From positions 1,632-65,631 of the forward strand of contig JAISYD010000211.1 of the NCBI GenBank assembly GCA_031270145.1: a stretch of DNA of 64,000 nt, in the 5' to 3' direction. Positions 8,679 to 64,000 of the stretch are shown here, in pieces. Origin of the DNA: Planctomycetota bacterium (GTDB taxonomy: Bacteria; Planctomycetota; SZUA-567). The position numbers were made by a program, and so were the translations under genes. The notes beneath the pieces are model-generated. The model saw only the letters and a list, made by a program, of their open reading frames with translations. It did not search any database and was not told the DNA's origin. Positions within the stretch are counted from its first letter, which is position 1; each line of letters begins with the position of its first letter.

Positions 8679-8682
8679 GGAA

Positions 8683-17052: not shown

Positions 17053-18191
17053 TCGGGGATCTTTCCCGGGGCCATGGCGACGCCCATTTTCGCCAGCGAC
17101 CTGCGCATGGCGTCGATGAGGCAGGAGACATCGGACGGAGCGATGCGGCCGACGTTGCCGACGCGGAAGAGATCGGCGTTGTCGACCTTTCCCGGATAAA
17201 TGACGAAACCGTCGTCCCTGAGGAGGTTGTAGAAATTGTCAAAGGAGAAGGCGGTATTTCGCGGATACCGGAAGGAGGTTATTATCCAGCCGTGGTCGTC
17301 CGGGGCGAGATATTCCTCGAAGCCGAGTTCGGCCATTCCCTCCCTCAGGGTCCGGCAATTCCGGCGGTAGCGCTTCATCCGGGCCTCCACGCCTCCCTCC
17401 GCCTCCAGTTCGAGAAGCGCCCGATGGAAGGCGAGGACGGCGTGGACGGGGGGCGTGTAGCGGAACTGCCCGTTCCTCCGCATGTCCTCGTTTTGCGCGT
17501 GCAAATCCAGGCACAGGCTGCGGGCATTGCCGGCGCTGGCCGCCAGGGCCTTGTTCTCGACTATGACGAAGGAGAACCCGGGCACGCCCTCGACGCATTT
17601 GTTGGCCGAGGAGACGAGCCAGCGGATATCCCACTTGTCAATCTTTATCTCCGCCGCCCCGAAGCTGGACATGGCGTCGACGATGAAGACGCGCTTCCGC
17701 TTGGAGACGATTTTGCCGACCTCCTTGACCGGGTTGAAAATGCCGGACGCCGTTTCGCAATGGACCATGGCCACGTGGGTGATGCCGTCGTCGTTTTTCA
17801 GCCTTTCCCCGACGTCCTCCGGCTTGACGGGGGCGTTTTCCGGATAGTCCAGCGTTTCCACCGGCATGTTCATGACCCGGGCCATATCGGAGATGCGTTT
17901 GCCGTAGGCGCCGTTGATTGCGACCAAAAGCTTGCCACCCTTTTTGGGAACGGCGCAACCGACGGCCGCCTCCACGCCCATGCTGCCGCAGCCTTGCATC
18001 AGGACAACGGTGTATTTGTCCCCGTCCACCTCCGCCAGATCGAGAAGCCGTTTTTTGACGTCGAGGACGATTTTCAGGAAATCGGCGTCCCGGGCGCCGA
18101 GATCGCGCAACATGGCCGTCTTCACCGCCGGACTGGTGGTCAAGGGGCCGGGGGTGAACAATATCTTGTCCTTCCATGACTCGCGCGGCAT
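17049..18191 (-). CDS. phnW: 2-aminoethylphosphonate:pyruvate aminotransferase
   Basis: Class-V aminotransferase (FTPGPLTTSPAVKTAML; SSANKCVEGVPGFSF with the PLP lysine). ATG 18191 has GGGAGG 8 nt upstream. 4-nt overlap with phnX. Confidence 0.9.
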   Translation of the reverse strand: MPRESWKDKILFTPGPLTTSPAVKTAMLRDLGARDADFLKIVLDVKKRLLDLAEVDGDKYTVVLMQGCGSMGVEAAVGCAVPKKGGKLLVAINGAYGKRISDMARVMNMPVETLDYPENAPVKPEDVGERLKNDDGITHVAMVHCETASGIFNPVKEVGKIVSKRKRVFIVDAMSSFGAAEIKIDKWDIRWLVSSANKCVEGVPGFSFVIVENKALAASAGNARSLCLDLHAQNEDMRRNGQFRYTPPVHAVLAFHRALLELEAEGGVEARMKRYRRNCRTLREGMAELGFEEYLAPDDHGWIITSFRYPRNTAFSFDNFYNLLRDDGFVIYPGKVDNADLFRVGNVGRIAPSDVSCLIDAMRRSLAKMGVAMAPGKIPE

Positions 18192-18557
18192 GGCGATTGA
18201 CCTCCCTTGGGGGAACACCGGTCCCGTATCGGCGCCGGATCGTATTTGGACCACGAGCGGGAGTATATCCCCGATTGTTGGAAAATTATGAGGATAGGGT
18301 TGGAAACGCGTTATTTCCGATCTCCGCAACGAGGGCGGATTTTTCCCGGATGCGGTTCAATCCGCCGGGAGTTTCCCGGCGATCCTTTTCCCGGCGTCGT
18401 CCCGCCCTTGCCGAAGCCCCGCCTTCAGGCTTCGCCGCCGGGATTAATTATGGCAATTTGAACGCCGTTTTGGCCGACAAATAATAAGGGAACCTCATAC
18501 GGTCTTTTGGATGTTCCCCAAGCATCTCCATTCCGTCGGGAAGGGAACTATAAGTCC

Positions 18558-19946
18558 ATGCCGTATTTCCGCCTCGCTTGGCGGTACGCTGTCCGCCGCC
18601 CGGTAAATTTTATCGCCGTGCTGGCCATCGGCCTGGCCCTGGCGGTGCAAATCGTCGCCATGGCGGTGTTGGACGGCATGCTGGCGGATTTGGAGCAGCG
18701 CCTCATGAATCTGGGCGAACAGGTGACGGTCAGGCCGGAAGGCGGCTTGCTGGACAAGGCCGATTTCTCGAGGGCGGCCGGAGCCGTGGAAAGCCTGGAC
18801 GGGGTTCTGGCGGTGACCCCCCTGATTCAGAAGGCGGGCTTCCTGAAGTCCGGCGGCGGCGCCGAATACGTCTGGGTCCAGGGAATCGATTTGGCGTCCG
18901 AATTGGCCCACAGCTCCCTGGCCAGGCACCTTATTTCCTATAAGCCATCCCGGGCGAATCCGGCTTGGGGGACTACTGGCCCCAGGCCCGGCCTGTTCAT
19001 GGGAGAACAACTGGCCCGGCGCCTTCAGGCGGCTCCGGGGAGCGAGATCGAGCTTTTTTACGCCGAGCGGAACCCGGACGGCGGCTTGACCGCCAGATCC
19101 CGCGCTTTTGAAATCGTGTCCCTGTTCCGGAGCGGCAGCTTTGAAAAGGACAATTACGGCGTCTATATTCCCATCGGGGAAGCCGGAAAATTTTACCACG
19201 CCGCCGATTATCCGGACGCGGAATCCCGGGTGGAAATTTTGGTCGCCTGGCTGGAAAATCCCGCCCTGGCCGACGAACTGGAATCGGACATCGTCCGGGC
19301 CGCGCGGCTGGCTCTGGCCGGAACCGGGCCGGAAGGGCCGGTCCTGGTCTCGAATACCTGGCAAAAGCGCTGGGGCGAAATCGCCCGGGGCATGAAACAT
19401 GAAAACAACCTGATGGAATTGGTGTTGTTTCTGAACGACGGGGCCGGCGGCTTTTGCGTCTTCGCCATTTTGGTCACCCTGGTCAGCCGGCGTCTCCGGG
19501 ACGTCGGCCTGCTCCGCTGCCTGGGAGCCACCCGCCTGGGGGTGATGACGGTTTTCCTTTGCGTGGGATTGCTGCTCGGCGCCGCCGGGGGGCTGCTGGG
19601 GGGAATCCTGGGGACTTTCCTCGCCGGTCCGCTGAGAAGCGAAAATGTCGGCGGAAACAGGCGCCTGGCCGCCGGCGGGGCCGTGACGGCTCCTCTTTCC
19701 GGCCTGGAAACGGCGGCCGGAAGGCGCCCCCGCATAGACGTCTACTATGAAAGAATCACCGGCCAGCCGCTGTATCCCCCCCGCCTGTTCGGCCTGGCCG
19801 GGGAGGCCGGCCTGCCGCTGGTAATCCACCCCTGGAAACTGGCGCTGTATTTCGGGGCCGCCGTATTGGTTTCCGTGCTGGCGGCCGGCTACCCGGCCGC
19901 CTGGGCCGCTTGCCGGGAGCCCATGTCGGCCCTGCGCGAGGATTGA
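18558..19946 (+). CDS. LolC/LolE-MacB family ABC permease (FtsX domain)
   Basis: N-terminal TM (FIAVLAIGLALAVQIVAMAV), a large periplasmic domain, and a C-terminal FtsX-type TM bundle. Followed by a LolD-like ATPase. Confidence 0.8.
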   Translation: MPYFRLAWRYAVRRPVNFIAVLAIGLALAVQIVAMAVLDGMLADLEQRLMNLGEQVTVRPEGGLLDKADFSRAAGAVESLDGVLAVTPLIQKAGFLKSGGGAEYVWVQGIDLASELAHSSLARHLISYKPSRANPAWGTTGPRPGLFMGEQLARRLQAAPGSEIELFYAERNPDGGLTARSRAFEIVSLFRSGSFEKDNYGVYIPIGEAGKFYHAADYPDAESRVEILVAWLENPALADELESDIVRAARLALAGTGPEGPVLVSNTWQKRWGEIARGMKHENNLMELVLFLNDGAGGFCVFAILVTLVSRRLRDVGLLRCLGATRLGVMTVFLCVGLLLGAAGGLLGGILGTFLAGPLRSENVGGNRRLAAGGAVTAPLSGLETAAGRRPRIDVYYERITGQPLYPPRLFGLAGEAGLPLVIHPWKLALYFGAAVLVSVLAAGYPAAWAACREPMSALRED

Positions 19947-19947
19947 A

Positions 19948-20649
19948 ATGGCGGGAAACGTCCTGGAAGCCGAAAAACTTTCCAAAACCTACCGCGACGG
20001 GGAGAAGAGGCTCCCGGTCCTGCGCGATCTCGACCTGGCGGTGGCGGAGGGCGAGGTGATCGCCATTGTCGGGCGCAGCGGCTCGGGGAAAACCACCCTC
20101 CTCAACCTGTGCGGGCTTCTTGACCGGCCCGATACCGGGGAAATACGTCTGCGCGGCCTTCCCGCCTCCCGGCTGCCGGATTCCCGGCGGACCGCCCTTA
20201 GGGGACGGGAAATCGGCTTTGTTTTTCAAAACTACCATCTGCTTCCCGATTTTTCCGTGCTGGAAAACGTCATGCTAGGCGCCGCGCTCAGCGGGTTGGG
20301 CATGGGGGGGCGGAGCCGCCGGGGCGCCCTTGATTGGTTGGAACGCCTGGGACTGTCCGGGCGTCGGGATCACCGCCCTTCCCAGTTGTCCGGGGGCGAG
20401 AGGCAACGGGCGGCCATCGCCCGGGCGCTTCTGCCCGGCCCCGGATTGTTGTTGTGCGACGAGCCGACCGGCAATCTGGACGCCGATACCGGGGAGGAGG
20501 TGTCGGCCTGGCTGTGGCGGATGGTGGGGGAGGCCGGCATGGCCGTGATTGTCGTCACCCATGAATCGGCCCTGGCCGCCAGGGCCGATCGGATTTTCCG
20601 GCTGGAAGCCGGCCGGCTGGCGGCGGTGGCGAGGGCGGGGGGGATTTGA
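19948..20649 (+). CDS. LolD/MacB-type ABC ATPase
   Basis: Walker A GRSGSGKTT, signature LSGGERQRAAIARAL, Walker B LLLCDEPTGNLD. GAGGA RBS. Confidence 0.85.
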   Translation: MAGNVLEAEKLSKTYRDGEKRLPVLRDLDLAVAEGEVIAIVGRSGSGKTTLLNLCGLLDRPDTGEIRLRGLPASRLPDSRRTALRGREIGFVFQNYHLLPDFSVLENVMLGAALSGLGMGGRSRRGALDWLERLGLSGRRDHRPSQLSGGERQRAAIARALLPGPGLLLCDEPTGNLDADTGEEVSAWLWRMVGEAGMAVIVVTHESALAARADRIFRLEAGRLAAVARAGGI

Positions 20650-20687
20650 AGCCTCCGGAAATGGTCGGGGCTGGGAAAGGCGCGGAT

Positions 20688-22634
20688 ATGGCGGGCAAGC
20701 TTGGGGAAATTCTGTTTGGTTACGGACGCGGCCGGGCGGGTTCGATTGCCGCCGGTCTGGCCGTCCTGGCGCTGGCTCCGCTGATTGGCGGCTGCGACGA
20801 GCGGCTGTTCAGTTACCGGACCGGCGACGGCCCCCCTCCGGCTTCCCAAAAGGTCCTTATCCTGCCGTTCCTGGACACCCGCACCTTCGTGGATCCCGGG
20901 GACGCCCATAAGGACGATTTAGGCGAACACGCCCGGGAAATTTTCGCTTCCGCCCTGCGGAGCAGCAAATTCGGCCCGGCGGTGGAAATACTGGCGCCGC
21001 CCTTGCCGCGCCGGGAAGCTTCCCTCACCAATGCCCAAGCCGCTGAAATCGGCCGCCGGCAGGGGGCGGATTTGGTTGTGGCCGGGCAGATTTTCAGTTT
21101 TACCGGCACCAGGGCCGCCAGCATACCTTCCCGGGCCGGAATGTTTGTCCGGGTGATCGACGCCGACCGGGGGGTGCTGCTGTTTGTGGGAGACAACTAC
21201 CAGGCGGCGGCCATGCCCGGCGCCGCCGGCGGCCGGGAGCGCCAGGCTCGGGCCGTGGCGGCGAGGATAATCGACGGCTTCTTTCAACGGACGGCGGCTT
21301 CCCTGTCGCGCCTGGGATTTTCTTCCGACCAAGCCCTGGCTTCCCTTATAGCCGGGCGATACCGGAATGAGCCGGCGAAAGAGGATTATCCCGGAGAGGG
21401 CGAAGCCGACCCACCCCTGCCGATGCCGCCGCCGTTTCTGGAATCGGAAAGGGAGGAAGAAGTTACGGATCCGGGGATCGCGGCCGAAAGCGGCCCGATC
21501 CCGGAATCCGGGGATGCCGCGACGGTCGCCGAAACCGGCGGCGGCGAGTCCGGAGCGGAGGAGGAGGCGGAAGAACGGTTCGAGGCGGGGGCGGACGATT
21601 CGCCGTCGCCGGCCGATATTGGGGAACTTGACGAACTGGCTCTCCGGCTTACCGGGGACGATTTGGCGGCCGACATATTTGCCGAAGGCGAAGAACTATT
21701 GGCCGAAGCGCTGGCTTTTCGGCCGGTGGTGATCGGCTCCGGCCGGACGGCCGAGACGGCGGCCGGCGAATCGGAGTCCCTGGCGGAAACCATCGGACCG
21801 CCTGATTCGCCGGAACCGGGAGGGCCGGAGGCTTTGAAGGCGAATCCGGAGGGTCTCGATTCCGCCCCGGAGATTTCGCCGGCGGAAATCGCGGCGGAAA
21901 ATCCTTCGGTCGCGGAAACGCTTTACGCCGATGGTCCGGTGGTCAGTCTTCCCCTTGTTTCGGAACAGCCATGGCTGGCAAGCGGGGACCCGCGGACGGC
22001 GGCCCGGGCGTCGAAGGAATTGGGGGGGAAGGAAGTCGGGGTTTTGTTGCTTCCCTACCATGATCGCGACAATCCCAACAATCTCATCGCCGCGACCGGG
22101 GGAGGGGAGGTGGTGACCGGGGTTTTCGGAGCCGGACTGTCCGGGGTTTCCGGCCTCCGGTTGCTGTGGGACGCCACCGGCCAGGCCACCCATGACCAAT
22201 TGCTCAGTCCGGACGAGGCGGTGCGCATGGGCCGGATTGCCGGAGCCGATTTCGTTGTCCGGGGGCAGGTGGTTGAATTCCGCCGTTCCCAGTCGGTTCC
22301 CAGCCTTTATTCGGCGGTCATTTCCACCGCCATCCTGGCGGCGCAAATCATGTTCGCCGAAATGACCGGGGTCGATGTGGCGACCGAGGTTTACCGGGTC
22401 TCCGACGGCCGCTGCGTAGTTTCGCGCCGGGATCGGGCTCAGCAGAAATATGTGGTGCAGGCGGAAAAAACCGTACGCCGGATAACGGCCGGCGTTGTCG
22501 CCGGCCTGGCGGAGGTTTTCCGGGAAGAGGATCCCCCGGAGATGGATCCCCTGATCGATACCCTTCTCCCGGTGACGGTTTTCACCAATCCCCGCCGGGG
22601 GAGGCCGGCGGAGGAATTCCCGGCGGCCAATTGA
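20688..22634 (+). CDS. Large lipoprotein with two CsgG/LpoB-like modules and an acidic linker, hypothetical
   Basis: Lipobox in LAVLALAPLIGGC. Two modules end in GADLVVAGQIFSF and GADFVVRGQVVEF. Between them lies a central Glu/Asp/Pro/Ala low-complexity region of roughly 200 aa. Start is uncertain (20646 TTG, 20661 or 20688 ATG). Confidence 0.7.
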   Translation: MAGKLGEILFGYGRGRAGSIAAGLAVLALAPLIGGCDERLFSYRTGDGPPPASQKVLILPFLDTRTFVDPGDAHKDDLGEHAREIFASALRSSKFGPAVEILAPPLPRREASLTNAQAAEIGRRQGADLVVAGQIFSFTGTRAASIPSRAGMFVRVIDADRGVLLFVGDNYQAAAMPGAAGGRERQARAVAARIIDGFFQRTAASLSRLGFSSDQALASLIAGRYRNEPAKEDYPGEGEADPPLPMPPPFLESEREEEVTDPGIAAESGPIPESGDAATVAETGGGESGAEEEAEERFEAGADDSPSPADIGELDELALRLTGDDLAADIFAEGEELLAEALAFRPVVIGSGRTAETAAGESESLAETIGPPDSPEPGGPEALKANPEGLDSAPEISPAEIAAENPSVAETLYADGPVVSLPLVSEQPWLASGDPRTAARASKELGGKEVGVLLLPYHDRDNPNNLIAATGGGEVVTGVFGAGLSGVSGLRLLWDATGQATHDQLLSPDEAVRMGRIAGADFVVRGQVVEFRRSQSVPSLYSAVISTAILAAQIMFAEMTGVDVATEVYRVSDGRCVVSRRDRAQQKYVVQAEKTVRRITAGVVAGLAEVFREEDPPEMDPLIDTLLPVTVFTNPRRGRPAEEFPAAN

Positions 22635-22637
22635 GGG

Positions 22638-23732
22638 TCAAGCGGTTGTTTCGCCGCGCGCGGTTCCCTCCAGGCGTTTGCTTATGAAGGCGGCAACGGC
22701 CGGCCCGGTTAGAAGCACAAAAATGAAACGGCCGGTTTGAACCGCCATGACCAGGGGCACGTCTCCCCCGATCGAGGCGGTGATGATGGCTACGGTATCC
22801 ATGCCTCCGGGACAGGAGGCCAAGAGGGCGGTCAGGGGATCGATGCCCGCCGCGGCCACGAAAATCCAGGCCAGGATTCCGCAAGCCGCTATCATGGCGA
22901 GGATGGTGGCCAAAATGCGGGAAAAGGCGTGCAGGGCATAGGACACGATGGAACGGGTGAAGCGCATGCCCACGTTCCAACCCACCACGCAATAGGACGC
23001 GGCGTAAAGTTGCCAAGGCAGGCGCAGGGGGCCCAGCCCGGCGGCGGCGAGAAAGGGAAGCACTAGTATCGGCAATAGCATCGGTCCCGACGGGAAATGG
23101 CACAAACCGCGCAGGAATGTTCCCGCAACCGCCAATCCCAAGGCCAGGAATATGGAGCCGGGATCGAAAATTTCCGCCGCCCGTTCCGGGGGCGAGGCGG
23201 CTATGGCTATGTCCCAAACCAGCGGCAGGGTGGTGGCGAACAGGGTGACCGTCAGTACCCGCAAATATTGCATGAAGGCGACCAGCCGGGAATCGGCGCC
23301 GAAATTTTCCGACATCAAGGTCATCAGCAGGGCCGCTCCGGGCGAAGTGCCCCAGATGGCGGTGGATCCCGGCAATATCCGGGTCCTGGCCAGAAGCCAG
23401 CCCAGGAAGGTGCTTATCGCCGACACCGACAGCACCATGGAGATGAAAAATGGCCAGTTTCGCCCGATGGTGTCCAGGGTCGCCGGGGAGATTGAGCCCG
23501 CCACCAGGCAGCCGACCATTCCCTGGGCCAGGGAAAAGGCGATTCCCGGCGTTTGTATTTGGCCTTCCGCCAGGGCCATGACGATTGCCGCCCCCATGGC
23601 CCCCATGAGGATGCCGGCCGGCAGCCGCAGCGAAACCAGTATAAAGGAAAAAATCAGGGTCAGTCCGGCCAGCAAGGCCCAGCGCAGCCGGGCGGGAAGG
23701 CGGGAAAAATCAAGTCGCTCAAGAAATTTCAT
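22638..23732 (-). CDS. AbrB-family (COG3180-like) duplicated membrane protein
   Basis: 364 aa with about 10 TM in two similar halves. The N-terminus LAGLTLIFSFILVSLRLPAGILMGAMGAAIVMAL is typical of this family as I recall it. Confidence 0.6.
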   Translation of the reverse strand: MKFLERLDFSRLPARLRWALLAGLTLIFSFILVSLRLPAGILMGAMGAAIVMALAEGQIQTPGIAFSLAQGMVGCLVAGSISPATLDTIGRNWPFFISMVLSVSAISTFLGWLLARTRILPGSTAIWGTSPGAALLMTLMSENFGADSRLVAFMQYLRVLTVTLFATTLPLVWDIAIAASPPERAAEIFDPGSIFLALGLAVAGTFLRGLCHFPSGPMLLPILVLPFLAAAGLGPLRLPWQLYAASYCVVGWNVGMRFTRSIVSYALHAFSRILATILAMIAACGILAWIFVAAAGIDPLTALLASCPGGMDTVAIITASIGGDVPLVMAVQTGRFIFVLLTGPAVAAFISKRLEGTARGETTA

Positions 23733-23773
23733 GCCGCGCCTCCCAAACTGGCGGCGCCGGACTCAACATCGGA

Positions 23774-23824
23774 GGATTTTAAAGGAAATCAAGCGGGGGT
23801 TTGGTTCGATTTCTTTAAAAGTCC
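23774..23824. repeat. TTTAAAGGAAATC hairpin-family member
   Basis: tttaaaggaaatc (23778..23790), 17-nt centre aagcgggggtttggttc, then gatttctttaaa (23808..23819). Intergenic. Confidence 0.6.
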
Positions 23825-23873
23825 ACCACCCGGCAAGGTGGCAATTGTTTCACAAGCCCGCCTGGAACCGGCT

Positions 23874-24848
23874 CTACTTGTTCACCACGTTTACGGGACT
23901 GCCCTTGGCGAAGGCGGCCAGGTTGTCCACCGCTATGTTCATCAGCCGGATGCGCGCCTCCTTGGGAGCCCAGGCTATGTGGGGAGTGATATGGCAGTTC
24001 CGGGTTCGGGGCAATTTGTTGTCGGGGGCGATGGGTTCAACCTCGACCACGTCCGAGCCGAAACCGGCCACCTTGCCGCTTTCCAAGGCTTCGACCATGT
24101 CCTCCTCCACCACTAGGGGTCCGCGGGAGGTGTTGATGATGATGACCCCGTCCTTCATCCTGGCTATGGTCGACTTGTTGATCAATCCCCGGGTGGAATC
24201 AAAAAGCGGGACATGCAGGCTGATTACGTCCGATTTGGCCAGGGCGTCGTCGAGAGAGGCGTATTTAATCGAATCGGTTTCCCGGGATTTATCCACATAT
24301 TCATCGTAGGCAAGCACCTTCATGCCGAAAGCGACGGCGATCCCGGCCACCGTTTGTCCGATGCGGCCAAACCCGATTATCCCCATCGTCTTGCCCGCCA
24401 GTTCAATCAGGGGGTAGTCCCAATAGCAAAAATCCTCGGATTTTGCCCAGCGGCCGTTCTTGACCGTCTCGGCGTGATGCGCCACATGATGGCAGAATTC
24501 CAGCAAATGGGCGAAAACGAACTGGGCCACGGCGGTGGTTCCGTAGGTGGGGATGTTGGTGACGACAACCCCCTTTTCCCTGGCGGCGTCGACATCCACG
24601 ACATTGTAACCGGTGGCGAGGACCCCGATATATTTCACTTTTGGCTTGGAGTCGAGTATTTCCCGGGTTATGGGCGTCTTGTTGGTTATGACCGCGTCGG
24701 CGTCGGCGATGCGGTCGATAATTTTGGCCGTCTCCTCCTTTTTGGTGGTGGTGCGGTCATAGCAGACCAATTCCCCCAGTTTTTTGAAGCCGTTCCAGTC
24801 GATGTCGCCGGGATTTAGGGTGTAACCGTCCAATACGACAATTTTCAT
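23874..24848 (-). CDS. D-isomer-specific 2-hydroxyacid (glycerate-type) dehydrogenase
   Basis: NAD fold GIIGFGRIGQTVAGIAVAFGMKVLAYD. Catalytic-region motifs INTSRGPLV and ITPHIAW. ATG 24848 follows AAGGGAG. Confidence 0.85.
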   Translation of the reverse strand: MKIVVLDGYTLNPGDIDWNGFKKLGELVCYDRTTTKKEETAKIIDRIADADAVITNKTPITREILDSKPKVKYIGVLATGYNVVDVDAAREKGVVVTNIPTYGTTAVAQFVFAHLLEFCHHVAHHAETVKNGRWAKSEDFCYWDYPLIELAGKTMGIIGFGRIGQTVAGIAVAFGMKVLAYDEYVDKSRETDSIKYASLDDALAKSDVISLHVPLFDSTRGLINKSTIARMKDGVIIINTSRGPLVVEEDMVEALESGKVAGFGSDVVEVEPIAPDNKLPRTRNCHITPHIAWAPKEARIRLMNIAVDNLAAFAKGSPVNVVNK

Positions 24849-24958
24849 GGCGTCCACTCCCTTTTGGAAAACGAGATGGAAATTGGGGCTCGGCGGAAAA
24901 TAAGCACCGCGAGTTTATCCGGCGCCTCAACAATACTCCGGCCGGTTGGAAGAACAAT

Positions 24959-26736: not shown

Positions 26737-26801
26737 ATGTTTGGGCCTCCCCTGACAAGAATGAACCCGGAAACCTCCAGATGAAAAGTATATTTTAGTT
26801 T

Positions 26802-26840
26802 GATTTTTAGGCAAGCGGTTTGGCCGGCGAATTGATTTCC
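26802..26840. repeat. Degenerate fragment related to the hairpin family
   Basis: gatttttaggcaagcggtttggccggcgaattgatttcc shares GCAAGCGGTTT and GATTTCC with the copies at 30141..30170 and 23791..23812. Its mirror is at 54279..54317. Confidence 0.35.
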
Positions 26841-54120: not shown

Positions 54121-54382
54121 GAGCCGGGGGCCAGCCTTGGGCAAGGGAAGCGGCGTTCGAGGCGGTCCAAGGGCTCACGAAAAACAACCCCGTAATCTTC
54201 TCCAGTTTCGCCTCCGATCCGCTTACCTTCGCCGCCGACCGGGCGAGCGCCCGGCGGAATTCACGGTTGATCCGGGGGGGAAATCAATTCGCCGGCCAAA
54301 CCGCTTGCCTAAAAATCAAACTAAAATATACTTTTCATCTGGAGGTTTCCGGGTTCATTCTTGTCAGGGGAGGCCCAAACAT

Positions 54383-55213: not shown

Positions 55214-56160
55214 TGGAAACCATCGCCATGCGCGACGCCTACGGGGCGGCCCTGGCCGAACTCGGCTCTGAATTGCCCAACCTGGTGGTCCTGGACGCCG
55301 ATGTGGCCGGCTCCTCCAAGAGTTCCCTTTTCGGCGCCAAATTCCCCGAGCGCTTTTTCAATGTCGGCATCGCCGAAGCGAATATGGCCGGAATGGCCGC
55401 CGGCCTGGCGCTAAAGGGAAAACTCCCGTTTGTACATTGCTTCGCCGCCTTCATGATGCTCCGGGCCGGCGATCCCATACGCAGCCTCGCCTGTTACCAG
55501 AACCTGCCGGTAAAATTCTGCGGCACCTATGCCGGCCTTTCCGATTCCTATGACGGCGCCAGCCACCACGCCATATCCGACATCTCCTTTTTCCGGGCCC
55601 TGCCCAACATGAAAGTGATTTCCCCGGCCGACGGGGAGGAAACCCGGCGGGCGGTCCGCTTCGCCGCCGGCCTGGCGGGCCCGGTATATCTGCGCATTTC
55701 CCGGGCCGAAGTACCCAAAAGCCTTTTCGGAGCCGGTTACGAATTCGAATACGGCAAGGGGTACGTGGCCCGCGAAGGCTCGGATCTCACCCTTGTCGCC
55801 ACCGGCTTCATGAACGTCCAGGCGTTGCGGGCGGGGGAACTTTTGGCCAAGGAGGGCATCCGCGCCCGGATAGTCAACATTCATACCATCAAGCCCATCG
55901 ACGCCTCCCTGATTGCGAAATGCGCCAGGGAAACCGGGGCGGTGGTAACCTGCGAGGAACACAACGTCATCGGCGGCCTGGGCGCGGCGGTGGCCGAGGT
56001 CCTTGGCCGCGAATCCCCGGTTCCCCTGGAGATCCTGGGGATCGAGGATTGTTTCGCGGAATCCGGCGATTACGGAAAACTCCTTGAAAAATATGGCCTT
56101 TCACCCGACAGAATCGTGGAAAAGGCCAAAAGGGTCCTTTCGCGCAAGAAGGGAAAATGA
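55210..56160 (+). CDS. Transketolase C-terminal subunit (mirror copy)
   Basis: Twin of 24959..25909. Confidence 0.9.
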   Translation: MMETIAMRDAYGAALAELGSELPNLVVLDADVAGSSKSSLFGAKFPERFFNVGIAEANMAGMAAGLALKGKLPFVHCFAAFMMLRAGDPIRSLACYQNLPVKFCGTYAGLSDSYDGASHHAISDISFFRALPNMKVISPADGEETRRAVRFAAGLAGPVYLRISRAEVPKSLFGAGYEFEYGKGYVAREGSDLTLVATGFMNVQALRAGELLAKEGIRARIVNIHTIKPIDASLIAKCARETGAVVTCEEHNVIGGLGAAVAEVLGRESPVPLEILGIEDCFAESGDYGKLLEKYGLSPDRIVEKAKRVLSRKKGK

Positions 56161-56270
56161 ATTGTTCTTCCAACCGGCCGGAGTATTGTTGAGGCGCCGG
56201 ATAAACTCGCGGTGCTTATTTTCCGCCGAGCCCCAATTTCCATCTCGTTTTCCAAAAGGGAGTGGACGCC

Positions 56271-57245
56271 ATGAAAATTGTCGTATTGGACGGTTACACC
56301 CTAAATCCCGGCGACATCGACTGGAACGGCTTCAAAAAACTGGGGGAATTGGTCTGCTATGACCGCACCACCACCAAAAAGGAGGAGACGGCCAAAATTA
56401 TCGACCGCATCGCCGACGCCGACGCGGTCATAACCAACAAGACGCCCATAACCCGGGAAATACTCGACTCCAAGCCAAAAGTGAAATATATCGGGGTCCT
56501 CGCCACCGGTTACAATGTCGTGGATGTCGACGCCGCCAGGGAAAAGGGGGTTGTCGTCACCAACATCCCCACCTACGGAACCACCGCCGTGGCCCAGTTC
56601 GTTTTCGCCCATTTGCTGGAATTCTGCCATCATGTGGCGCATCACGCCGAGACGGTCAAGAACGGCCGCTGGGCAAAATCCGAGGATTTTTGCTATTGGG
56701 ACTACCCCCTGATTGAACTGGCGGGCAAGACGATGGGGATAATCGGGTTTGGCCGCATCGGACAAACGGTGGCCGGGATCGCCGTCGCTTTCGGCATGAA
56801 GGTGCTTGCCTACGATGAATATGTGGATAAATCCCGGGAAACCGATTCGATTAAATACGCCTCTCTCGACGACGCCCTGGCCAAATCGGACGTAATCAGC
56901 CTGCATGTCCCGCTTTTTGATTCCACCCGGGGATTGATCAACAAGTCGACCATAGCCAGGATGAAGGACGGGGTCATCATCATCAACACCTCCCGCGGAC
57001 CCCTAGTGGTGGAGGAGGACATGGTCGAAGCCTTGGAAAGCGGCAAGGTGGCCGGTTTCGGCTCGGACGTGGTCGAGGTTGAACCCATCGCCCCCGACAA
57101 CAAATTGCCCCGAACCCGGAACTGCCATATCACTCCCCACATAGCCTGGGCTCCCAAGGAGGCGCGCATCCGGCTGATGAACATAGCGGTGGACAACCTG
57201 GCCGCCTTCGCCAAGGGCAGTCCCGTAAACGTGGTGAACAAGTAG
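56271..57245 (+). CDS. 2-hydroxyacid dehydrogenase (mirror copy)
   Basis: Twin of 23874..24848. ATG at 56271 follows AAGGGAG. Confidence 0.85.
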   Translation: MKIVVLDGYTLNPGDIDWNGFKKLGELVCYDRTTTKKEETAKIIDRIADADAVITNKTPITREILDSKPKVKYIGVLATGYNVVDVDAAREKGVVVTNIPTYGTTAVAQFVFAHLLEFCHHVAHHAETVKNGRWAKSEDFCYWDYPLIELAGKTMGIIGFGRIGQTVAGIAVAFGMKVLAYDEYVDKSRETDSIKYASLDDALAKSDVISLHVPLFDSTRGLINKSTIARMKDGVIIINTSRGPLVVEEDMVEALESGKVAGFGSDVVEVEPIAPDNKLPRTRNCHITPHIAWAPKEARIRLMNIAVDNLAAFAKGSPVNVVNK

Positions 57246-57294
57246 AGCCGGTTCCAGGCGGGCTTGTGAAACAATTGCCACCTTGCCGGGTGGT

Positions 57295-57345
57295 GGACTT
57301 TTAAAGAAATCGAACCAAACCCCCGCTTGATTTCCTTTAAAATCC
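57295..57345. repeat. Hairpin-family member (mirror copy)
   Basis: Twin of 23774..23824. Confidence 0.6.
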
Positions 57346-57386
57346 TCCGATGTTGAGTCCGGCGCCGCCAGTTTGGGAGGCGCGGC

Positions 57387-58481
57387 ATGAAATTTCTTGA
57401 GCGACTTGATTTTTCCCGCCTTCCCGCCCGGCTGCGCTGGGCCTTGCTGGCCGGACTGACCCTGATTTTTTCCTTTATACTGGTTTCGCTGCGGCTGCCG
57501 GCCGGCATCCTCATGGGGGCCATGGGGGCGGCAATCGTCATGGCCCTGGCGGAAGGCCAAATACAAACGCCGGGAATCGCCTTTTCCCTGGCCCAGGGAA
57601 TGGTCGGCTGCCTGGTGGCGGGCTCAATCTCCCCGGCGACCCTGGACACCATCGGGCGAAACTGGCCATTTTTCATCTCCATGGTGCTGTCGGTGTCGGC
57701 GATAAGCACCTTCCTGGGCTGGCTTCTGGCCAGGACCCGGATATTGCCGGGATCCACCGCCATCTGGGGCACTTCGCCCGGAGCGGCCCTGCTGATGACC
57801 TTGATGTCGGAAAATTTCGGCGCCGATTCCCGGCTGGTCGCCTTCATGCAATATTTGCGGGTACTGACGGTCACCCTGTTCGCCACCACCCTGCCGCTGG
57901 TTTGGGACATAGCCATAGCCGCCTCGCCCCCGGAACGGGCGGCGGAAATTTTCGATCCCGGCTCCATATTCCTGGCCTTGGGATTGGCGGTTGCGGGAAC
58001 ATTCCTGCGCGGTTTGTGCCATTTCCCGTCGGGACCGATGCTATTGCCGATACTAGTGCTTCCCTTTCTCGCCGCCGCCGGGCTGGGCCCCCTGCGCCTG
58101 CCTTGGCAACTTTACGCCGCGTCCTATTGCGTGGTGGGTTGGAACGTGGGCATGCGCTTCACCCGTTCCATCGTGTCCTATGCCCTGCACGCCTTTTCCC
58201 GCATTTTGGCCACCATCCTCGCCATGATAGCGGCTTGCGGAATCCTGGCCTGGATTTTCGTGGCCGCGGCGGGCATCGATCCCCTGACCGCCCTCTTGGC
58301 CTCCTGTCCCGGAGGCATGGATACCGTAGCCATCATCACCGCCTCGATCGGGGGAGACGTGCCCCTGGTCATGGCGGTTCAAACCGGCCGTTTCATTTTT
58401 GTGCTTCTAACCGGGCCGGCCGTTGCCGCCTTCATAAGCAAACGCCTGGAGGGAACCGCGCGCGGCGAAACAACCGCTTGA
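57387..58481 (+). CDS. AbrB-family membrane protein (mirror copy)
   Basis: Twin of 22638..23732. Confidence 0.6.
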   Translation: MKFLERLDFSRLPARLRWALLAGLTLIFSFILVSLRLPAGILMGAMGAAIVMALAEGQIQTPGIAFSLAQGMVGCLVAGSISPATLDTIGRNWPFFISMVLSVSAISTFLGWLLARTRILPGSTAIWGTSPGAALLMTLMSENFGADSRLVAFMQYLRVLTVTLFATTLPLVWDIAIAASPPERAAEIFDPGSIFLALGLAVAGTFLRGLCHFPSGPMLLPILVLPFLAAAGLGPLRLPWQLYAASYCVVGWNVGMRFTRSIVSYALHAFSRILATILAMIAACGILAWIFVAAAGIDPLTALLASCPGGMDTVAIITASIGGDVPLVMAVQTGRFIFVLLTGPAVAAFISKRLEGTARGETTA

Positions 58482-58484
58482 CCC

Positions 58485-60431
58485 TCAATTGGCCGCCGGG
58501 AATTCCTCCGCCGGCCTCCCCCGGCGGGGATTGGTGAAAACCGTCACCGGGAGAAGGGTATCGATCAGGGGATCCATCTCCGGGGGATCCTCTTCCCGGA
58601 AAACCTCCGCCAGGCCGGCGACAACGCCGGCCGTTATCCGGCGTACGGTTTTTTCCGCCTGCACCACATATTTCTGCTGAGCCCGATCCCGGCGCGAAAC
58701 TACGCAGCGGCCGTCGGAGACCCGGTAAACCTCGGTCGCCACATCGACCCCGGTCATTTCGGCGAACATGATTTGCGCCGCCAGGATGGCGGTGGAAATG
58801 ACCGCCGAATAAAGGCTGGGAACCGACTGGGAACGGCGGAATTCAACCACCTGCCCCCGGACAACGAAATCGGCTCCGGCAATCCGGCCCATGCGCACCG
58901 CCTCGTCCGGACTGAGCAATTGGTCATGGGTGGCCTGGCCGGTGGCGTCCCACAGCAACCGGAGGCCGGAAACCCCGGACAGTCCGGCTCCGAAAACCCC
59001 GGTCACCACCTCCCCTCCCCCGGTCGCGGCGATGAGATTGTTGGGATTGTCGCGATCATGGTAGGGAAGCAACAAAACCCCGACTTCCTTCCCCCCCAAT
59101 TCCTTCGACGCCCGGGCCGCCGTCCGCGGGTCCCCGCTTGCCAGCCATGGCTGTTCCGAAACAAGGGGAAGACTGACCACCGGACCATCGGCGTAAAGCG
59201 TTTCCGCGACCGAAGGATTTTCCGCCGCGATTTCCGCCGGCGAAATCTCCGGGGCGGAATCGAGACCCTCCGGATTCGCCTTCAAAGCCTCCGGCCCTCC
59301 CGGTTCCGGCGAATCAGGCGGTCCGATGGTTTCCGCCAGGGACTCCGATTCGCCGGCCGCCGTCTCGGCCGTCCGGCCGGAGCCGATCACCACCGGCCGA
59401 AAAGCCAGCGCTTCGGCCAATAGTTCTTCGCCTTCGGCAAATATGTCGGCCGCCAAATCGTCCCCGGTAAGCCGGAGAGCCAGTTCGTCAAGTTCCCCAA
59501 TATCGGCCGGCGACGGCGAATCGTCCGCCCCCGCCTCGAACCGTTCTTCCGCCTCCTCCTCCGCTCCGGACTCGCCGCCGCCGGTTTCGGCGACCGTCGC
59601 GGCATCCCCGGATTCCGGGATCGGGCCGCTTTCGGCCGCGATCCCCGGATCCGTAACTTCTTCCTCCCTTTCCGATTCCAGAAACGGCGGCGGCATCGGC
59701 AGGGGTGGGTCGGCTTCGCCCTCTCCGGGATAATCCTCTTTCGCCGGCTCATTCCGGTATCGCCCGGCTATAAGGGAAGCCAGGGCTTGGTCGGAAGAAA
59801 ATCCCAGGCGCGACAGGGAAGCCGCCGTCCGTTGAAAGAAGCCGTCGATTATCCTCGCCGCCACGGCCCGAGCCTGGCGCTCCCGGCCGCCGGCGGCGCC
59901 GGGCATGGCCGCCGCCTGGTAGTTGTCTCCCACAAACAGCAGCACCCCCCGGTCGGCGTCGATCACCCGGACAAACATTCCGGCCCGGGAAGGTATGCTG
60001 GCGGCCCTGGTGCCGGTAAAACTGAAAATCTGCCCGGCCACAACCAAATCCGCCCCCTGCCGGCGGCCGATTTCAGCGGCTTGGGCATTGGTGAGGGAAG
60101 CTTCCCGGCGCGGCAAGGGCGGCGCCAGTATTTCCACCGCCGGGCCGAATTTGCTGCTCCGCAGGGCGGAAGCGAAAATTTCCCGGGCGTGTTCGCCTAA
60201 ATCGTCCTTATGGGCGTCCCCGGGATCCACGAAGGTGCGGGTGTCCAGGAACGGCAGGATAAGGACCTTTTGGGAAGCCGGAGGGGGGCCGTCGCCGGTC
60301 CGGTAACTGAACAGCCGCTCGTCGCAGCCGCCAATCAGCGGAGCCAGCGCCAGGACGGCCAGACCGGCGGCAATCGAACCCGCCCGGCCGCGTCCGTAAC
60401 CAAACAGAATTTCCCCAAGCTTGCCCGCCAT
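58485..60431 (-). CDS. Acidic two-module lipoprotein (mirror copy)
   Basis: Twin of 20688..22634. Confidence 0.7.
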   Translation of the reverse strand: MAGKLGEILFGYGRGRAGSIAAGLAVLALAPLIGGCDERLFSYRTGDGPPPASQKVLILPFLDTRTFVDPGDAHKDDLGEHAREIFASALRSSKFGPAVEILAPPLPRREASLTNAQAAEIGRRQGADLVVAGQIFSFTGTRAASIPSRAGMFVRVIDADRGVLLFVGDNYQAAAMPGAAGGRERQARAVAARIIDGFFQRTAASLSRLGFSSDQALASLIAGRYRNEPAKEDYPGEGEADPPLPMPPPFLESEREEEVTDPGIAAESGPIPESGDAATVAETGGGESGAEEEAEERFEAGADDSPSPADIGELDELALRLTGDDLAADIFAEGEELLAEALAFRPVVIGSGRTAETAAGESESLAETIGPPDSPEPGGPEALKANPEGLDSAPEISPAEIAAENPSVAETLYADGPVVSLPLVSEQPWLASGDPRTAARASKELGGKEVGVLLLPYHDRDNPNNLIAATGGGEVVTGVFGAGLSGVSGLRLLWDATGQATHDQLLSPDEAVRMGRIAGADFVVRGQVVEFRRSQSVPSLYSAVISTAILAAQIMFAEMTGVDVATEVYRVSDGRCVVSRRDRAQQKYVVQAEKTVRRITAGVVAGLAEVFREEDPPEMDPLIDTLLPVTVFTNPRRGRPAEEFPAAN

Positions 60432-60469
60432 ATCCGCGCCTTTCCCAGCCCCGACCATTTCCGGAGGCT

Positions 60470-61171
60470 TCAAATCCCCCCCGCCCTCGCCACCGCCGCC
60501 AGCCGGCCGGCTTCCAGCCGGAAAATCCGATCGGCCCTGGCGGCCAGGGCCGATTCATGGGTGACGACAATCACGGCCATGCCGGCCTCCCCCACCATCC
60601 GCCACAGCCAGGCCGACACCTCCTCCCCGGTATCGGCGTCCAGATTGCCGGTCGGCTCGTCGCACAACAACAATCCGGGGCCGGGCAGAAGCGCCCGGGC
60701 GATGGCCGCCCGTTGCCTCTCGCCCCCGGACAACTGGGAAGGGCGGTGATCCCGACGCCCGGACAGTCCCAGGCGTTCCAACCAATCAAGGGCGCCCCGG
60801 CGGCTCCGCCCCCCCATGCCCAACCCGCTGAGCGCGGCGCCTAGCATGACGTTTTCCAGCACGGAAAAATCGGGAAGCAGATGGTAGTTTTGAAAAACAA
60901 AGCCGATTTCCCGTCCCCTAAGGGCGGTCCGCCGGGAATCCGGCAGCCGGGAGGCGGGAAGGCCGCGCAGACGTATTTCCCCGGTATCGGGCCGGTCAAG
61001 AAGCCCGCACAGGTTGAGGAGGGTGGTTTTCCCCGAGCCGCTGCGCCCGACAATGGCGATCACCTCGCCCTCCGCCACCGCCAGGTCGAGATCGCGCAGG
61101 ACCGGGAGCCTCTTCTCCCCGTCGCGGTAGGTTTTGGAAAGTTTTTCGGCTTCCAGGACGTTTCCCGCCAT
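60470..61171 (-). CDS. LolD/MacB-type ABC ATPase (mirror copy)
   Basis: Twin of 19948..20649. Confidence 0.85.
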   Translation of the reverse strand: MAGNVLEAEKLSKTYRDGEKRLPVLRDLDLAVAEGEVIAIVGRSGSGKTTLLNLCGLLDRPDTGEIRLRGLPASRLPDSRRTALRGREIGFVFQNYHLLPDFSVLENVMLGAALSGLGMGGRSRRGALDWLERLGLSGRRDHRPSQLSGGERQRAAIARALLPGPGLLLCDEPTGNLDADTGEEVSAWLWRMVGEAGMAVIVVTHESALAARADRIFRLEAGRLAAVARAGGI

Positions 61172-61172
61172 T

Positions 61173-62561
61173 TCAATCCTCGCGCAGGGCCGACATGGGC
61201 TCCCGGCAAGCGGCCCAGGCGGCCGGGTAGCCGGCCGCCAGCACGGAAACCAATACGGCGGCCCCGAAATACAGCGCCAGTTTCCAGGGGTGGATTACCA
61301 GCGGCAGGCCGGCCTCCCCGGCCAGGCCGAACAGGCGGGGGGGATACAGCGGCTGGCCGGTGATTCTTTCATAGTAGACGTCTATGCGGGGGCGCCTTCC
61401 GGCCGCCGTTTCCAGGCCGGAAAGAGGAGCCGTCACGGCCCCGCCGGCGGCCAGGCGCCTGTTTCCGCCGACATTTTCGCTTCTCAGCGGACCGGCGAGG
61501 AAAGTCCCCAGGATTCCCCCCAGCAGCCCCCCGGCGGCGCCGAGCAGCAATCCCACGCAAAGGAAAACCGTCATCACCCCCAGGCGGGTGGCTCCCAGGC
61601 AGCGGAGCAGGCCGACGTCCCGGAGACGCCGGCTGACCAGGGTGACCAAAATGGCGAAGACGCAAAAGCCGCCGGCCCCGTCGTTCAGAAACAACACCAA
61701 TTCCATCAGGTTGTTTTCATGTTTCATGCCCCGGGCGATTTCGCCCCAGCGCTTTTGCCAGGTATTCGAGACCAGGACCGGCCCTTCCGGCCCGGTTCCG
61801 GCCAGAGCCAGCCGCGCGGCCCGGACGATGTCCGATTCCAGTTCGTCGGCCAGGGCGGGATTTTCCAGCCAGGCGACCAAAATTTCCACCCGGGATTCCG
61901 CGTCCGGATAATCGGCGGCGTGGTAAAATTTTCCGGCTTCCCCGATGGGAATATAGACGCCGTAATTGTCCTTTTCAAAGCTGCCGCTCCGGAACAGGGA
62001 CACGATTTCAAAAGCGCGGGATCTGGCGGTCAAGCCGCCGTCCGGGTTCCGCTCGGCGTAAAAAAGCTCGATCTCGCTCCCCGGAGCCGCCTGAAGGCGC
62101 CGGGCCAGTTGTTCTCCCATGAACAGGCCGGGCCTGGGGCCAGTAGTCCCCCAAGCCGGATTCGCCCGGGATGGCTTATAGGAAATAAGGTGCCTGGCCA
62201 GGGAGCTGTGGGCCAATTCGGACGCCAAATCGATTCCCTGGACCCAGACGTATTCGGCGCCGCCGCCGGACTTCAGGAAGCCCGCCTTCTGAATCAGGGG
62301 GGTCACCGCCAGAACCCCGTCCAGGCTTTCCACGGCTCCGGCCGCCCTCGAGAAATCGGCCTTGTCCAGCAAGCCGCCTTCCGGCCTGACCGTCACCTGT
62401 TCGCCCAGATTCATGAGGCGCTGCTCCAAATCCGCCAGCATGCCGTCCAACACCGCCATGGCGACGATTTGCACCGCCAGGGCCAGGCCGATGGCCAGCA
62501 CGGCGATAAAATTTACCGGGCGGCGGACAGCGTACCGCCAAGCGAGGCGGAAATACGGCAT
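61173..62561 (-). CDS. LolC/E-MacB family permease (mirror copy)
   Basis: Twin of 18558..19946. Confidence 0.8.
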   Translation of the reverse strand: MPYFRLAWRYAVRRPVNFIAVLAIGLALAVQIVAMAVLDGMLADLEQRLMNLGEQVTVRPEGGLLDKADFSRAAGAVESLDGVLAVTPLIQKAGFLKSGGGAEYVWVQGIDLASELAHSSLARHLISYKPSRANPAWGTTGPRPGLFMGEQLARRLQAAPGSEIELFYAERNPDGGLTARSRAFEIVSLFRSGSFEKDNYGVYIPIGEAGKFYHAADYPDAESRVEILVAWLENPALADELESDIVRAARLALAGTGPEGPVLVSNTWQKRWGEIARGMKHENNLMELVLFLNDGAGGFCVFAILVTLVSRRLRDVGLLRCLGATRLGVMTVFLCVGLLLGAAGGLLGGILGTFLAGPLRSENVGGNRRLAAGGAVTAPLSGLETAAGRRPRIDVYYERITGQPLYPPRLFGLAGEAGLPLVIHPWKLALYFGAAVLVSVLAAGYPAAWAACREPMSALRED

Positions 62562-62927
62562 GGACTTATAGTTCCCTTCCCGACGGAATGGAGATGCTTG
62601 GGGAACATCCAAAAGACCGTATGAGGTTCCCTTATTATTTGTCGGCCAAAACGGCGTTCAAATTGCCATAATTAATCCCGGCGGCGAAGCCTGAAGGCGG
62701 GGCTTCGGCAAGGGCGGGACGACGCCGGGAAAAGGATCGCCGGGAAACTCCCGGCGGATTGAACCGCATCCGGGAAAAATCCGCCCTCGTTGCGGAGATC
62801 GGAAATAACGCGTTTCCAACCCTATCCTCATAATTTTCCAACAATCGGGGATATACTCCCGCTCGTGGTCCAAATACGATCCGGCGCCGATACGGGACCG
62901 GTGTTCCCCCAAGGGAGGTCAATCGCC

Positions 62928-64000
62928 ATGCCGCGCGAGTCATGGAAGGACAAGATATTGTTCACCCCCGGCCCCTTGACCACCAGTCCGGCGGTGAAGA
63001 CGGCCATGTTGCGCGATCTCGGCGCCCGGGACGCCGATTTCCTGAAAATCGTCCTCGACGTCAAAAAACGGCTTCTCGATCTGGCGGAGGTGGACGGGGA
63101 CAAATACACCGTTGTCCTGATGCAAGGCTGCGGCAGCATGGGCGTGGAGGCGGCCGTCGGTTGCGCCGTTCCCAAAAAGGGTGGCAAGCTTTTGGTCGCA
63201 ATCAACGGCGCCTACGGCAAACGCATCTCCGATATGGCCCGGGTCATGAACATGCCGGTGGAAACGCTGGACTATCCGGAAAACGCCCCCGTCAAGCCGG
63301 AGGACGTCGGGGAAAGGCTGAAAAACGACGACGGCATCACCCACGTGGCCATGGTCCATTGCGAAACGGCGTCCGGCATTTTCAACCCGGTCAAGGAGGT
63401 CGGCAAAATCGTCTCCAAGCGGAAGCGCGTCTTCATCGTCGACGCCATGTCCAGCTTCGGGGCGGCGGAGATAAAGATTGACAAGTGGGATATCCGCTGG
63501 CTCGTCTCCTCGGCCAACAAATGCGTCGAGGGCGTGCCCGGGTTCTCCTTCGTCATAGTCGAGAACAAGGCCCTGGCGGCCAGCGCCGGCAATGCCCGCA
63601 GCCTGTGCCTGGATTTGCACGCGCAAAACGAGGACATGCGGAGGAACGGGCAGTTCCGCTACACGCCCCCCGTCCACGCCGTCCTCGCCTTCCATCGGGC
63701 GCTTCTCGAACTGGAGGCGGAGGGAGGCGTGGAGGCCCGGATGAAGCGCTACCGCCGGAATTGCCGGACCCTGAGGGAGGGAATGGCCGAACTCGGCTTC
63801 GAGGAATATCTCGCCCCGGACGACCACGGCTGGATAATAACCTCCTTCCGGTATCCGCGAAATACCGCCTTCTCCTTTGACAATTTCTACAACCTCCTCA
63901 GGGACGACGGTTTCGTCATTTATCCGGGAAAGGTCGACAACGCCGATCTCTTCCGCGTCGGCAACGTCGGCCGCATCGCTCCGTCCGATGTCTCCTGCCT
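62928..64000 (+). CDS. phnW: 2-aminoethylphosphonate:pyruvate aminotransferase (mirror copy, 3' truncated by window end)
   Basis: ATG at 62928 follows GGGAGG. Reads MPRESWKDKILFTPGPL..., the twin of 17049..18191. It is absent from the ORF track because it has no stop inside the window. Confidence 0.9.
   Translation, partial: MPRESWKDKILFTPGPLTTSPAVKTAMLRDLGARDADFLKIVLDVKKRLLDLAEVDGDKYTVVLMQGCGSMGVEAAVGCAVPKKGGKLLVAINGAYGKRISDMARVMNMPVETLDYPENAPVKPEDVGERLKNDDGITHVAMVHCETASGIFNPVKEVGKIVSKRKRVFIVDAMSSFGAAEIKIDKWDIRWLVSSANKCVEGVPGFSFVIVENKALAASAGNARSLCLDLHAQNEDMRRNGQFRYTPPVHAVLAFHRALLELEAEGGVEARMKRYRRNCRTLREGMAELGFEEYLAPDDHGWIITSFRYPRNTAFSFDNFYNLLRDDGFVIYPGKVDNADLFRVGNVGRIAPSDVSC

Follow-up and report, generated by a model that had tools for sequence, protein, structure and literature searches.

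Does a contig whose two halves mirror each other record a structure of the chromosome, or does it record the way in which the sequence was put together? The question is raised by a 64,000-nucleotide stretch of DNA from a Planctomycetota bacterium (part of contig JAISYD010000211.1; "the window" below means this whole stretch), which runs up to a point next to a gene for a GT4-family glycosyltransferase and then runs back as its own reverse complement. Our results suggest that, as a biological feature, the palindrome is most likely not real. The contig is very probably an artefactual fold-back that began at a natural palindromic repeat, a short hairpin element of a dispersed family whose dyad coincides with the axis of symmetry. 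An earlier note on this DNA had also placed an artefactual fold-back first, and we come to the same top ranking from circumstantial evidence.

Symmetry of the deposited sequence

When every position x of the window was compared with position 81119-x, the segments 17119..40559 and 40560..64000 were found to match exactly as reverse complements over all 23,441 bp (0 mismatches, no N). The axis falls at 40559/40560, where the centre reads CAAGCCAAG/CTTGGCTTG with zero spacer and the innermost bases are CAAG/CTTG. A scan of the unique 40,559 bp showed that the longest other zero-spacer palindrome is only 18 bp, and a chance origin of the palindrome is thus excluded. The left arm, in the part that has its mirror within the window (17119..40559), is chromosomal DNA from an uncultured Planctomycetota bacterium, extending from a PhnW-like gene to the GT4 glycosyltransferase gene. 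The right arm (40560..64000) is ended by the window and the palindrome goes on beyond it. The perfect zero-spacer palindrome described in the earlier note was therefore confirmed by base-by-base comparison, and it is larger than had been claimed. All three pairs of open reading frames (ORFs) that were quoted in its support satisfy x+x'=81119, and one of the frames, 17292..18179(+), is spurious, being antisense to the PhnW-like gene.

Two ORFs of 160 aa cross the axis, at 40254-40736 (+) and 40383-40865 (-); they are products of the mirror alone, for which no annotation is warranted. The HindIII site AAGCTT at 40557-40562 was considered as a possible trace of restriction and ligation, and was judged to be probably a post hoc coincidence. 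An AAGCTT at the centre is expected at 1.4% of random fold-back positions, and every zero-spacer palindrome has a palindromic central hexamer. Since nine further HindIII sites lie inside the arm, the arm is not the fragment of a complete digest.

Extent of the mirror

The gene nearest to the axis is that of the glycosyltransferase (P0001; 39320..40495, minus strand), whose ATG lies 64 bp from the axis, and its twin occupies 40624..41799 on the plus strand. The protein is 100% identical to one from a Planctomycetota metagenome-assembled genome (MAG), in which it carries the consecutive accessions MDR1520112.1 and MDR1520113.1 on one 84,380-bp contig (NCBI and JGI/IMG). These two accessions are the two mirror copies, in the order given, and they are adjacent in the deposited record. 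Ten proteins encoded to the left of 17119 were looked up and nine of the ten were found, each of the nine having two accessions on the same 84,380-bp contig and the numbers of the pairs having a constant sum. Written as the last three digits of MDR1520-, the pairs are FliR 080/145, FlhB 081/144, FlhA 082/143, FliA 085/140, the ATPase of an ATP-binding cassette (ABC) transporter 086/139, a permease 088/137, a 2-aminoethylphosphonate (AEP) permease 092/133, a binding protein 094/131 and PhnX 095/130, in line with 112/113 for the glycosyltransferase. Because paired accessions mirror each other, the mirror reaches at least as far as the counterpart of position 889 (FliR).

Each arm is thus at least 39,671 bp long, and both arms together account for at least 79,342 of the 84,380 bp (at least 94% of the contig). 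The offset of the window within the contig is limited to 0-4150. For the palindrome to span the contig from end to end (2 x 42,190 bp), the offset would have to be 1631, which lies within these limits, and 84,380 is an even number; the unseen part is the outer 5 kb or less. The outer left arm (889..17118), the mirror of which is placed beyond the end of the window on the basis of the paired accessions, carries the fliR/flhB/flhA/flhF/fliA genes of flagellar export, an amino-acid ABC transporter, a 2-aminoethylphosphonate ABC transporter and phnX. That the mirror runs past the window, as the earlier note had guessed, is correct as far as FliR, and rplS, rluD and cinA are indeed each present twice. 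Its count of 21 duplicated genes was inexact: the NCBI numbering gives 17 protein genes (096-112) mirrored in the window, and at least 33 protein genes (080-112) duplicated overall.

There was no second assembly of the same population for comparison, all tested proteins of the contig being singletons at 90% clustering. An exact 35-mer from the window had no match in the JGI contig collection, the genome collection held only relatives at 33% identity or less, and exact-protein look-ups of the glycosyltransferase, FlhA and the second GlnQ copy returned nothing on record. Related contigs are present in samples 3300042616, 3300042620 and 3300042621 of the JGI IMG 33000426xx series, to which the source metagenome belongs.

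One explanation that would make the axis a real DNA end is that it is the covalently closed hairpin tip, or the replicated telomere junction, of a linear replicon, ending here 64 bp upstream of the glycosyltransferase gene. Reading round a hairpin end yields a perfect palindrome with zero spacer, and no sequence continuing past the axis was found for this population. Such wrap-around has been seen in long-read assemblies of Borrelia, in which it measures 5-18 kb, lies at the ends of full-length replicon contigs and has a tip without Illumina coverage (bioRxiv 10.1101/2025.07.18.665644). Our contig resembles the Borrelia (ResT) case in its perfect inverse duplication, in the lack of a spacer and in a moderately AT-rich palindromic tip. 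In Borrelia, however, the wrap-around is found at both ends of a complete replicon and the tip is telomere-specific, whereas the mirror described here fills nearly the whole contig rather than the terminus of a long replicon, and its tip motif also occurs internally. The surroundings of the axis differ as well, since the genes near it include rplS, rluD, cinA and transketolase, which are ordinary core chromosomal genes and are located only 5-15 kb from the axis and thus from the supposed end. No resolvase is known for this Planctomycetota lineage. Neither a telomere resolvase or other resolvase nor any recombinase, transposase, phage or plasmid gene was present among the 20 ORFs scanned between 11.5 and 40.5 kb, a MAG-wide search for a resolvase not having been made. 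A literature search found no report of hairpin-ended Planctomycetes replicons. We consider it very unlikely that the axis is a telomere of this kind.

A dispersed hairpin element at the axis

The motif CTTTAAAGRAAATC has 14 matches in the window against 0.68 expected, and not one shuffle out of 100 gave as many. Within the unique half it is always paired with an inverted copy, over a span of 44-45 bp; there are four such pairs and, by the ORF map, all are intergenic. The axis copy, of 44 bp (40538..40581; TTTTAAAGAAAATCAAGCCAAG/CTTGGCTTGATTTTCTTTAAAA), has the motif at 40538(+) and at 40568-40581(-), its dyad centre is 40559/40560, and it lies 43 bp upstream of the glycosyltransferase gene. 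The three internal copies comprise copy (a) at 11469..11512, which is imperfect and intergenic, copy (b) at 30098..30141 upstream of rplS, which has a perfect 18-bp stem and the non-palindromic 8-nt loop CAACCGCC (mirror at 50978-51021), and copy (c), of 45 bp, at 23777..23821, which has an asymmetric loop (mirror at 57298-57342). All three are predicted hairpins with stems of 17-18 bp and non-palindromic loops of 4-8 nt, the pairing ending about 22 nt from the centre.

When JGI metagenome contigs were scanned with the pattern, 20 further copies appeared in contigs of the QMCD01/QMCE01 metagenomes (L053-L072). Their consensus, cctgaaacTTTAAAGGAAATCAAAC-GGCGGTTT-GTTTGATTTCCTTTAAAagtccact, is strongly conserved, including a conserved loop of about GGCGGTTT. 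The loop is asymmetric in all 20 copies, none of the 20 is on a fold-back contig, and the contigs that carry the element have no protein similarity to the window. In the QMCD01 contigs L054, L058, L062, L063, L064, L067 and L071 the hairpin elements often occur as pairs about 147 bp apart, and in L058 the segments 726-928 and 1086-1288 are copies (84% identity) of a repeated composite unit of about 203 nt that holds such pairs. These composite repeats resemble mosaics of the kind formed by bacterial interspersed mosaic elements (BIMEs) or miniature inverted-repeat transposable elements (MITEs).

Short, imperfectly palindromic, intergenic and present in many dispersed and conserved copies, the element is, as judged from its sequence, a previously unannotated dispersed palindromic family like the repetitive extragenic palindromic (REP) elements. 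REP/BIME elements are the closest match to the axis element, which is like them in its length of about 44 bp, its imperfect palindrome, its strictly intergenic location, its many copies with a conserved stem and loop, and its occasional composite clusters. It differs from the enterobacterial and Pseudomonas REPs in having no sequence relation to them and no Rfam match, and no REP-associated tyrosine transposase (RAYT) was seen nearby. Outside this Planctomycetota lineage, the motif CTTTAAAGRAAATC has so far turned up in no sequences other than contigs of the QMCD01/QMCE01 metagenomes.

The possibility that the axis hairpin serves the upstream gene as an intrinsic terminator was rejected. Terminator-like calls were at chance level (6 found, 6.2 expected), and three of the four element copies lie upstream of gene starts.

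The axis coincides exactly with the dyad of the element. About 8 of the 40,559 junction positions would hit an element dyad by chance (~2e-4, about 2 in 10,000), and because a random junction would do so this rarely, we consider the fold-back to be causally tied to the element. In the unique 40.5 kb, moreover, no zero-spacer palindrome except the axis element exceeds 18 bp, which makes that element the sole candidate site for an inverted self-loop at k >= 21.

The mechanisms put forward in the earlier note, template switching during multiple displacement amplification (MDA), SMRTbell reads with a missing adapter and nanopore fold-back reads, fit poorly with this coincidence, as they are expected to give random junctions and the axis lies exactly on the dyad. 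An artefact of this type would arise from fold-back reads with a random junction, be they nanopore template-to-complement reads, adapter-less SMRTbell reads or MDA inverted chimeras, followed by symmetric extension. Inverted chimeras from MDA mostly join nearby, non-identical positions, which results in an asymmetric centre. A single random chimeric read is normally outweighed by the true spanning reads, and the genes of the contig are intact, with none of the frameshift noise that is typical of long-read-only assemblies. Identical arms with zero spacer would be compatible with polished long-read contigs, palindromic contigs do occur in amplified single-cell data, and 1-4% of long genomic reads, at times a much larger share, are fold-back reads (PMC12870357). 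With the junction placed on the element dyad to the base, however, we regard an origin from reads with random junctions as improbable.

The element bears in the same way on the telomere. A hairpin end of a linear Planctomycetota chromosome could have been created at, or have evolved from, a member of the dispersed REP-like family. This is highly improbable, as the terminal 22-bp motif is not specific to an end and forms full hairpins at the three internal intergenic sites and on 20 unrelated contigs.

A proposed graph-level origin of the fold-back

The explanation that we prefer, a fold-back artefact begun at a natural palindrome, would require the following. One real stretch of about 42 kb of Planctomycetota chromosome would have been written out once and then again as its reverse complement, with a short, natural and dispersed REP-like hairpin element as the turn-round point. 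In the real genome the axis copy would be an exact palindrome whose length equals or exceeds the smallest k-mer overlap used, with CAAGCTTG as its natural centre, so that the end of the path would join its own reverse complement and form an "inverted self-loop" in the assembly graph. The true continuation would have been lost at the repeat through a coverage gap, tip clipping or a repeat tangle. From relatives one would expect an MscS channel gene there, and the end of contig Ga0466715_058757 may be this continuation. The assembler would then have put out A + P + revcomp(A) as one contig. A library chimera that formed at the same exact palindrome would lead to an equivalent outcome. Identical arms and a zero spacer follow by construction from a graph path that uses the same edge twice, and exact reverse-complement halves with zero spacer are what the deposited contig has.

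Behaviour of this kind has been described for de Bruijn graphs. Rahman & Medvedev 2022 (PMC9528984) reported that a k-mer with a self-complementary suffix produces an inverted loop which, if it is the sole continuation, yields a palindromic maximal unitig, that even error-free reads can give "unsafe" unitigs, which the genome does not contain, and that palindromic unitigs are put out whole and unsplit by SPAdes and MEGAHIT. In SPAdes assemblies of M. bovis, which has a circular chromosome, 81 end-to-end palindromic contigs were recognized as assembly errors (PMC9455707). Whole-contig palindromes are the subject of a practical report (bioRxiv 10.1101/2023.06.06.543983), they have been described from amplified single-cell assemblies too, and library chimeras at palindromes are also on record (PMC10908179). 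De Bruijn palindromic unitigs are like our contig in that they start at an exact palindrome, and they occur in organisms with ordinary circular chromosomes. Our contig differs from them in its size (at least 39.7 kb per arm), in having reached a MAG deposited at NCBI/IMG, and in having a starting palindrome from a dispersed hairpin family whose other copies are inexact; the loop in the graph is one that we infer from the sequence.

A missing neighbour of the glycosyltransferase gene

If the contig was broken at the element, the true neighbour of the axis would be expected elsewhere. A gene for an MscS-family channel lies directly upstream of the orthologous glycosyltransferase gene, in the same orientation and with a gap of 27-204 bp, in L047, L050, L051/L052 and L074. 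The glycosyltransferase of L047 has 68% identity to that of the window, and L074 is the closest relative, with 75% identity and a gap of 27 bp to MscS. A paralogous pair in the same MAG is arranged similarly, MDR1519663.1 (MscS) adjoining MDR1519664.1 (glycosyltransferase, 73% identity). The adjacency is thus found in five related contexts, with one exception, L048, which has DctP upstream. Since the genes downstream of the glycosyltransferase follow no conserved order in relatives, only the adjacency to MscS on the upstream side is usable. In the window, the mirror begins at the expected position of MscS.

An orphan MscS gene ends 143 bp from the end of the JGI contig Ga0466715_058757 (10,801 bp; also at NCBI; L073 below). 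The GC content of L073 is 0.610, the same as that of the window, and the two correlate in tetranucleotide composition at r = 0.982; the corresponding values are 0.91-0.98 inside the window and 0.81-0.96 for other relatives of the glycosyltransferase lineage. Among matches with the ncbi+jgi source signature and MDR15 accessions, to which the count was restricted, two MscS occur and two glycosyltransferases of this family; the members of one pair are neighbours, and the remaining two are each at a contig break. This pattern is what an artificial break with fold-back predicts, and as evidence it is circumstantial. The MscS end of L073 is suggestive, by content and composition, of the true neighbour of the axis. 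A search for a contig with the true neighbour of 40559, which the earlier note had recommended, has thus provided a candidate in L073 with its orphan MscS gene, the link between the two being only suggestive.

These observations also count against the hairpin telomere: the conserved MscS neighbour is missing, and an orphan MscS gene lies at the end of another contig that matches in composition. The second rank that the earlier note gave to this explanation is weakened by the internal motif copies, by the extent of the mirror and by the missing MscS gene, and we rate a telomere as very doubtful.

The same MAG contains diverged second copies of genes of the contig, namely the pair MDR1519664/663 (P0002/P0124, on a 15,782-bp contig) and a GlnQ-type ABC ATPase, MDR1519999, with 90% identity (P0094, on a 9,282-bp contig). 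Two related species may be mixed in the bin, and mis-binning of this sort could be caused by the halved apparent depth of a fold-back contig.

A long imperfect palindromic repeat of 172 nt is present at 7775..7946, in the intergenic region between fliA and the ABC ATPase gene, with a predicted folding energy of -89.5 kcal/mol. It has the end GTCGAC TTTTAGAG... in common with the small hairpin element, and its two ends, GTCGAC TTTTAGAGCG...CGCCCTAAAAGTC, resemble those of the small element. The repeat may be a MITE or a structured RNA. It occurs twice in L073, at 440-602 and 10684-10801 (90% and 99% identity), and L073 breaks inside the latter copy, which is 99% identical to 7780-7897 of the window. 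The 9-mer CCGGCGGGC at 40529..40537 (+) abuts the axis element (its mirror, GCCCGCCGG, is at 40582-40590), and the same 9-mer directly precedes the palindromic repeat just after the stop codon of the L073 MscS gene. A 14-nt match between L073 and the window, CCGGCGGGCTTTTA, is no more than chance would give if its place were free (about 3 expected). Only the fact that it abuts the element boundary in both sequences makes it notable, and it is suggestive, a lead and not a proof.

The symmetric centre of the axis copy

Several points weigh against a fold-back artefact. All 23 natural copies of the element that were inspected (3 in the window, 20 on other contigs) have a non-palindromic central loop of 4-8 nt, and so has the further copy in L073 (404-448). 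Mechanisms that retain the loop, such as snap-back priming, the pairing between partial single strands that come from a similar molecule (PDSM), cruciform resolution or a stem-loop-stem walk through the graph, leave a spacer, and the contig has none. Because there is no spacer, the artefact needs an axis copy that is exact through CAAG/CTTG. Such a copy is improbable when taken singly (about 0.4% if loops are random), and is plausible only since, at this density, hundreds of copies would be expected in the genome, from which the artefact picks out those that are exact. A hairpin end or a blunt head-to-head fusion, by comparison, would directly explain why the centre of the axis copy alone is symmetric. 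L073 is assigned to a different MAG, and it is the large repeat, not the small element, that adjoins the 9-mer there. Finally, the junction was judged from the deposited sequence, synteny and composition.

A blunt fusion could have produced a genuine giant inverted duplication, in which a break at or near the short palindrome was closed by a cap or by head-to-head fusion before replication, and which at least some of the cells would carry. In yeast, Tetrahymena and E. coli, large palindromes are known to begin at short inverted repeats when a double-strand break occurs close by, and the axis does lie on such a short inverted repeat. Cutting both loops of an extruded cruciform at the centre would give a blunt break exactly at the dyad. 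However, the route through an inverted repeat keeps the natural loop of 4-8 nt as a spacer, whereas the spacer of the contig is zero. Long perfect palindromes are moreover not stably replicated in bacteria, in which they are cleaved by SbcCD, and with at least 40 kb of core chromosome duplicated in inverted orientation the structure would be dicentric-like. Symmetry of the whole contig is also the signature of a known assembler artefact. A genuine duplication is therefore quite improbable, and a fold-back artefact that started at the natural palindrome remains the reading that we prefer.

Consequences for the public record

As biology the palindrome is most likely nothing, and the value of the observation lies in the data quality of a public MAG. 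In the MAG as deposited (NCBI and IMG), about 42 kb with at least 33 protein genes is present twice, among them single-copy markers such as rplS. Such a duplication inflates estimates of contamination and duplication, makes false paralogues in pangenome and gene-family counts, and seeds twin protein accessions. If the reads are split between the arms, the apparent depth would be halved and wrong binning would be possible. The position of the axis may also be of diagnostic use, as a fold-back axis exactly on a natural palindromic repeat points to an artefact that arose in the graph or was started by a palindrome, and away from random chimeric reads. The contig can be corrected by trimming it back to the axis (window position 40559). 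Were the artefact to be refuted, the alternative would be a hairpin-ended linear Planctomycetota chromosome, which would be a major surprise.

Gene content and other features of the arm

Going outward from the glycosyltransferase gene, Pfam matches identify an M15-like protein, a DUF2225-like protein, CinA, a pseudouridine synthase of the RluD type and a membrane protein like lysylphosphatidylglycerol (LPG) synthase. These are followed by a HEAT-repeat protein, ribosomal protein L19, a Na/Pi cotransporter, a split transketolase and a 2-hydroxyacid dehydrogenase. Outermost in the visible mirrored part are an AbrB-family membrane protein, an ABC exporter and the PhnW-like aminotransferase. No tRNA genes and no Rfam families were found in the arm.

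The rplS (L19) gene is solitary, without trmD before it, and is preceded by a 675-bp intergenic region of lower GC (29777-30451), which holds a hairpin element, copy (b), plus an extra half-site at 30164-30177. The transketolase is split into N-terminal and C-terminal genes (24959-26982, minus strand). A second split transketolase pair is present in L073 (2566-3438 and 4618-5571), within a sugar-nucleotide gene cluster, with about 72-76% nucleotide identity to the pair of the window. Two transporter operons are separated by a 1.1-kb stretch of lower GC (0.555) at 11013-12173, inside which there is one hairpin element, and a 147-aa ORF in the same stretch (11543..11986) is without a Pfam match.

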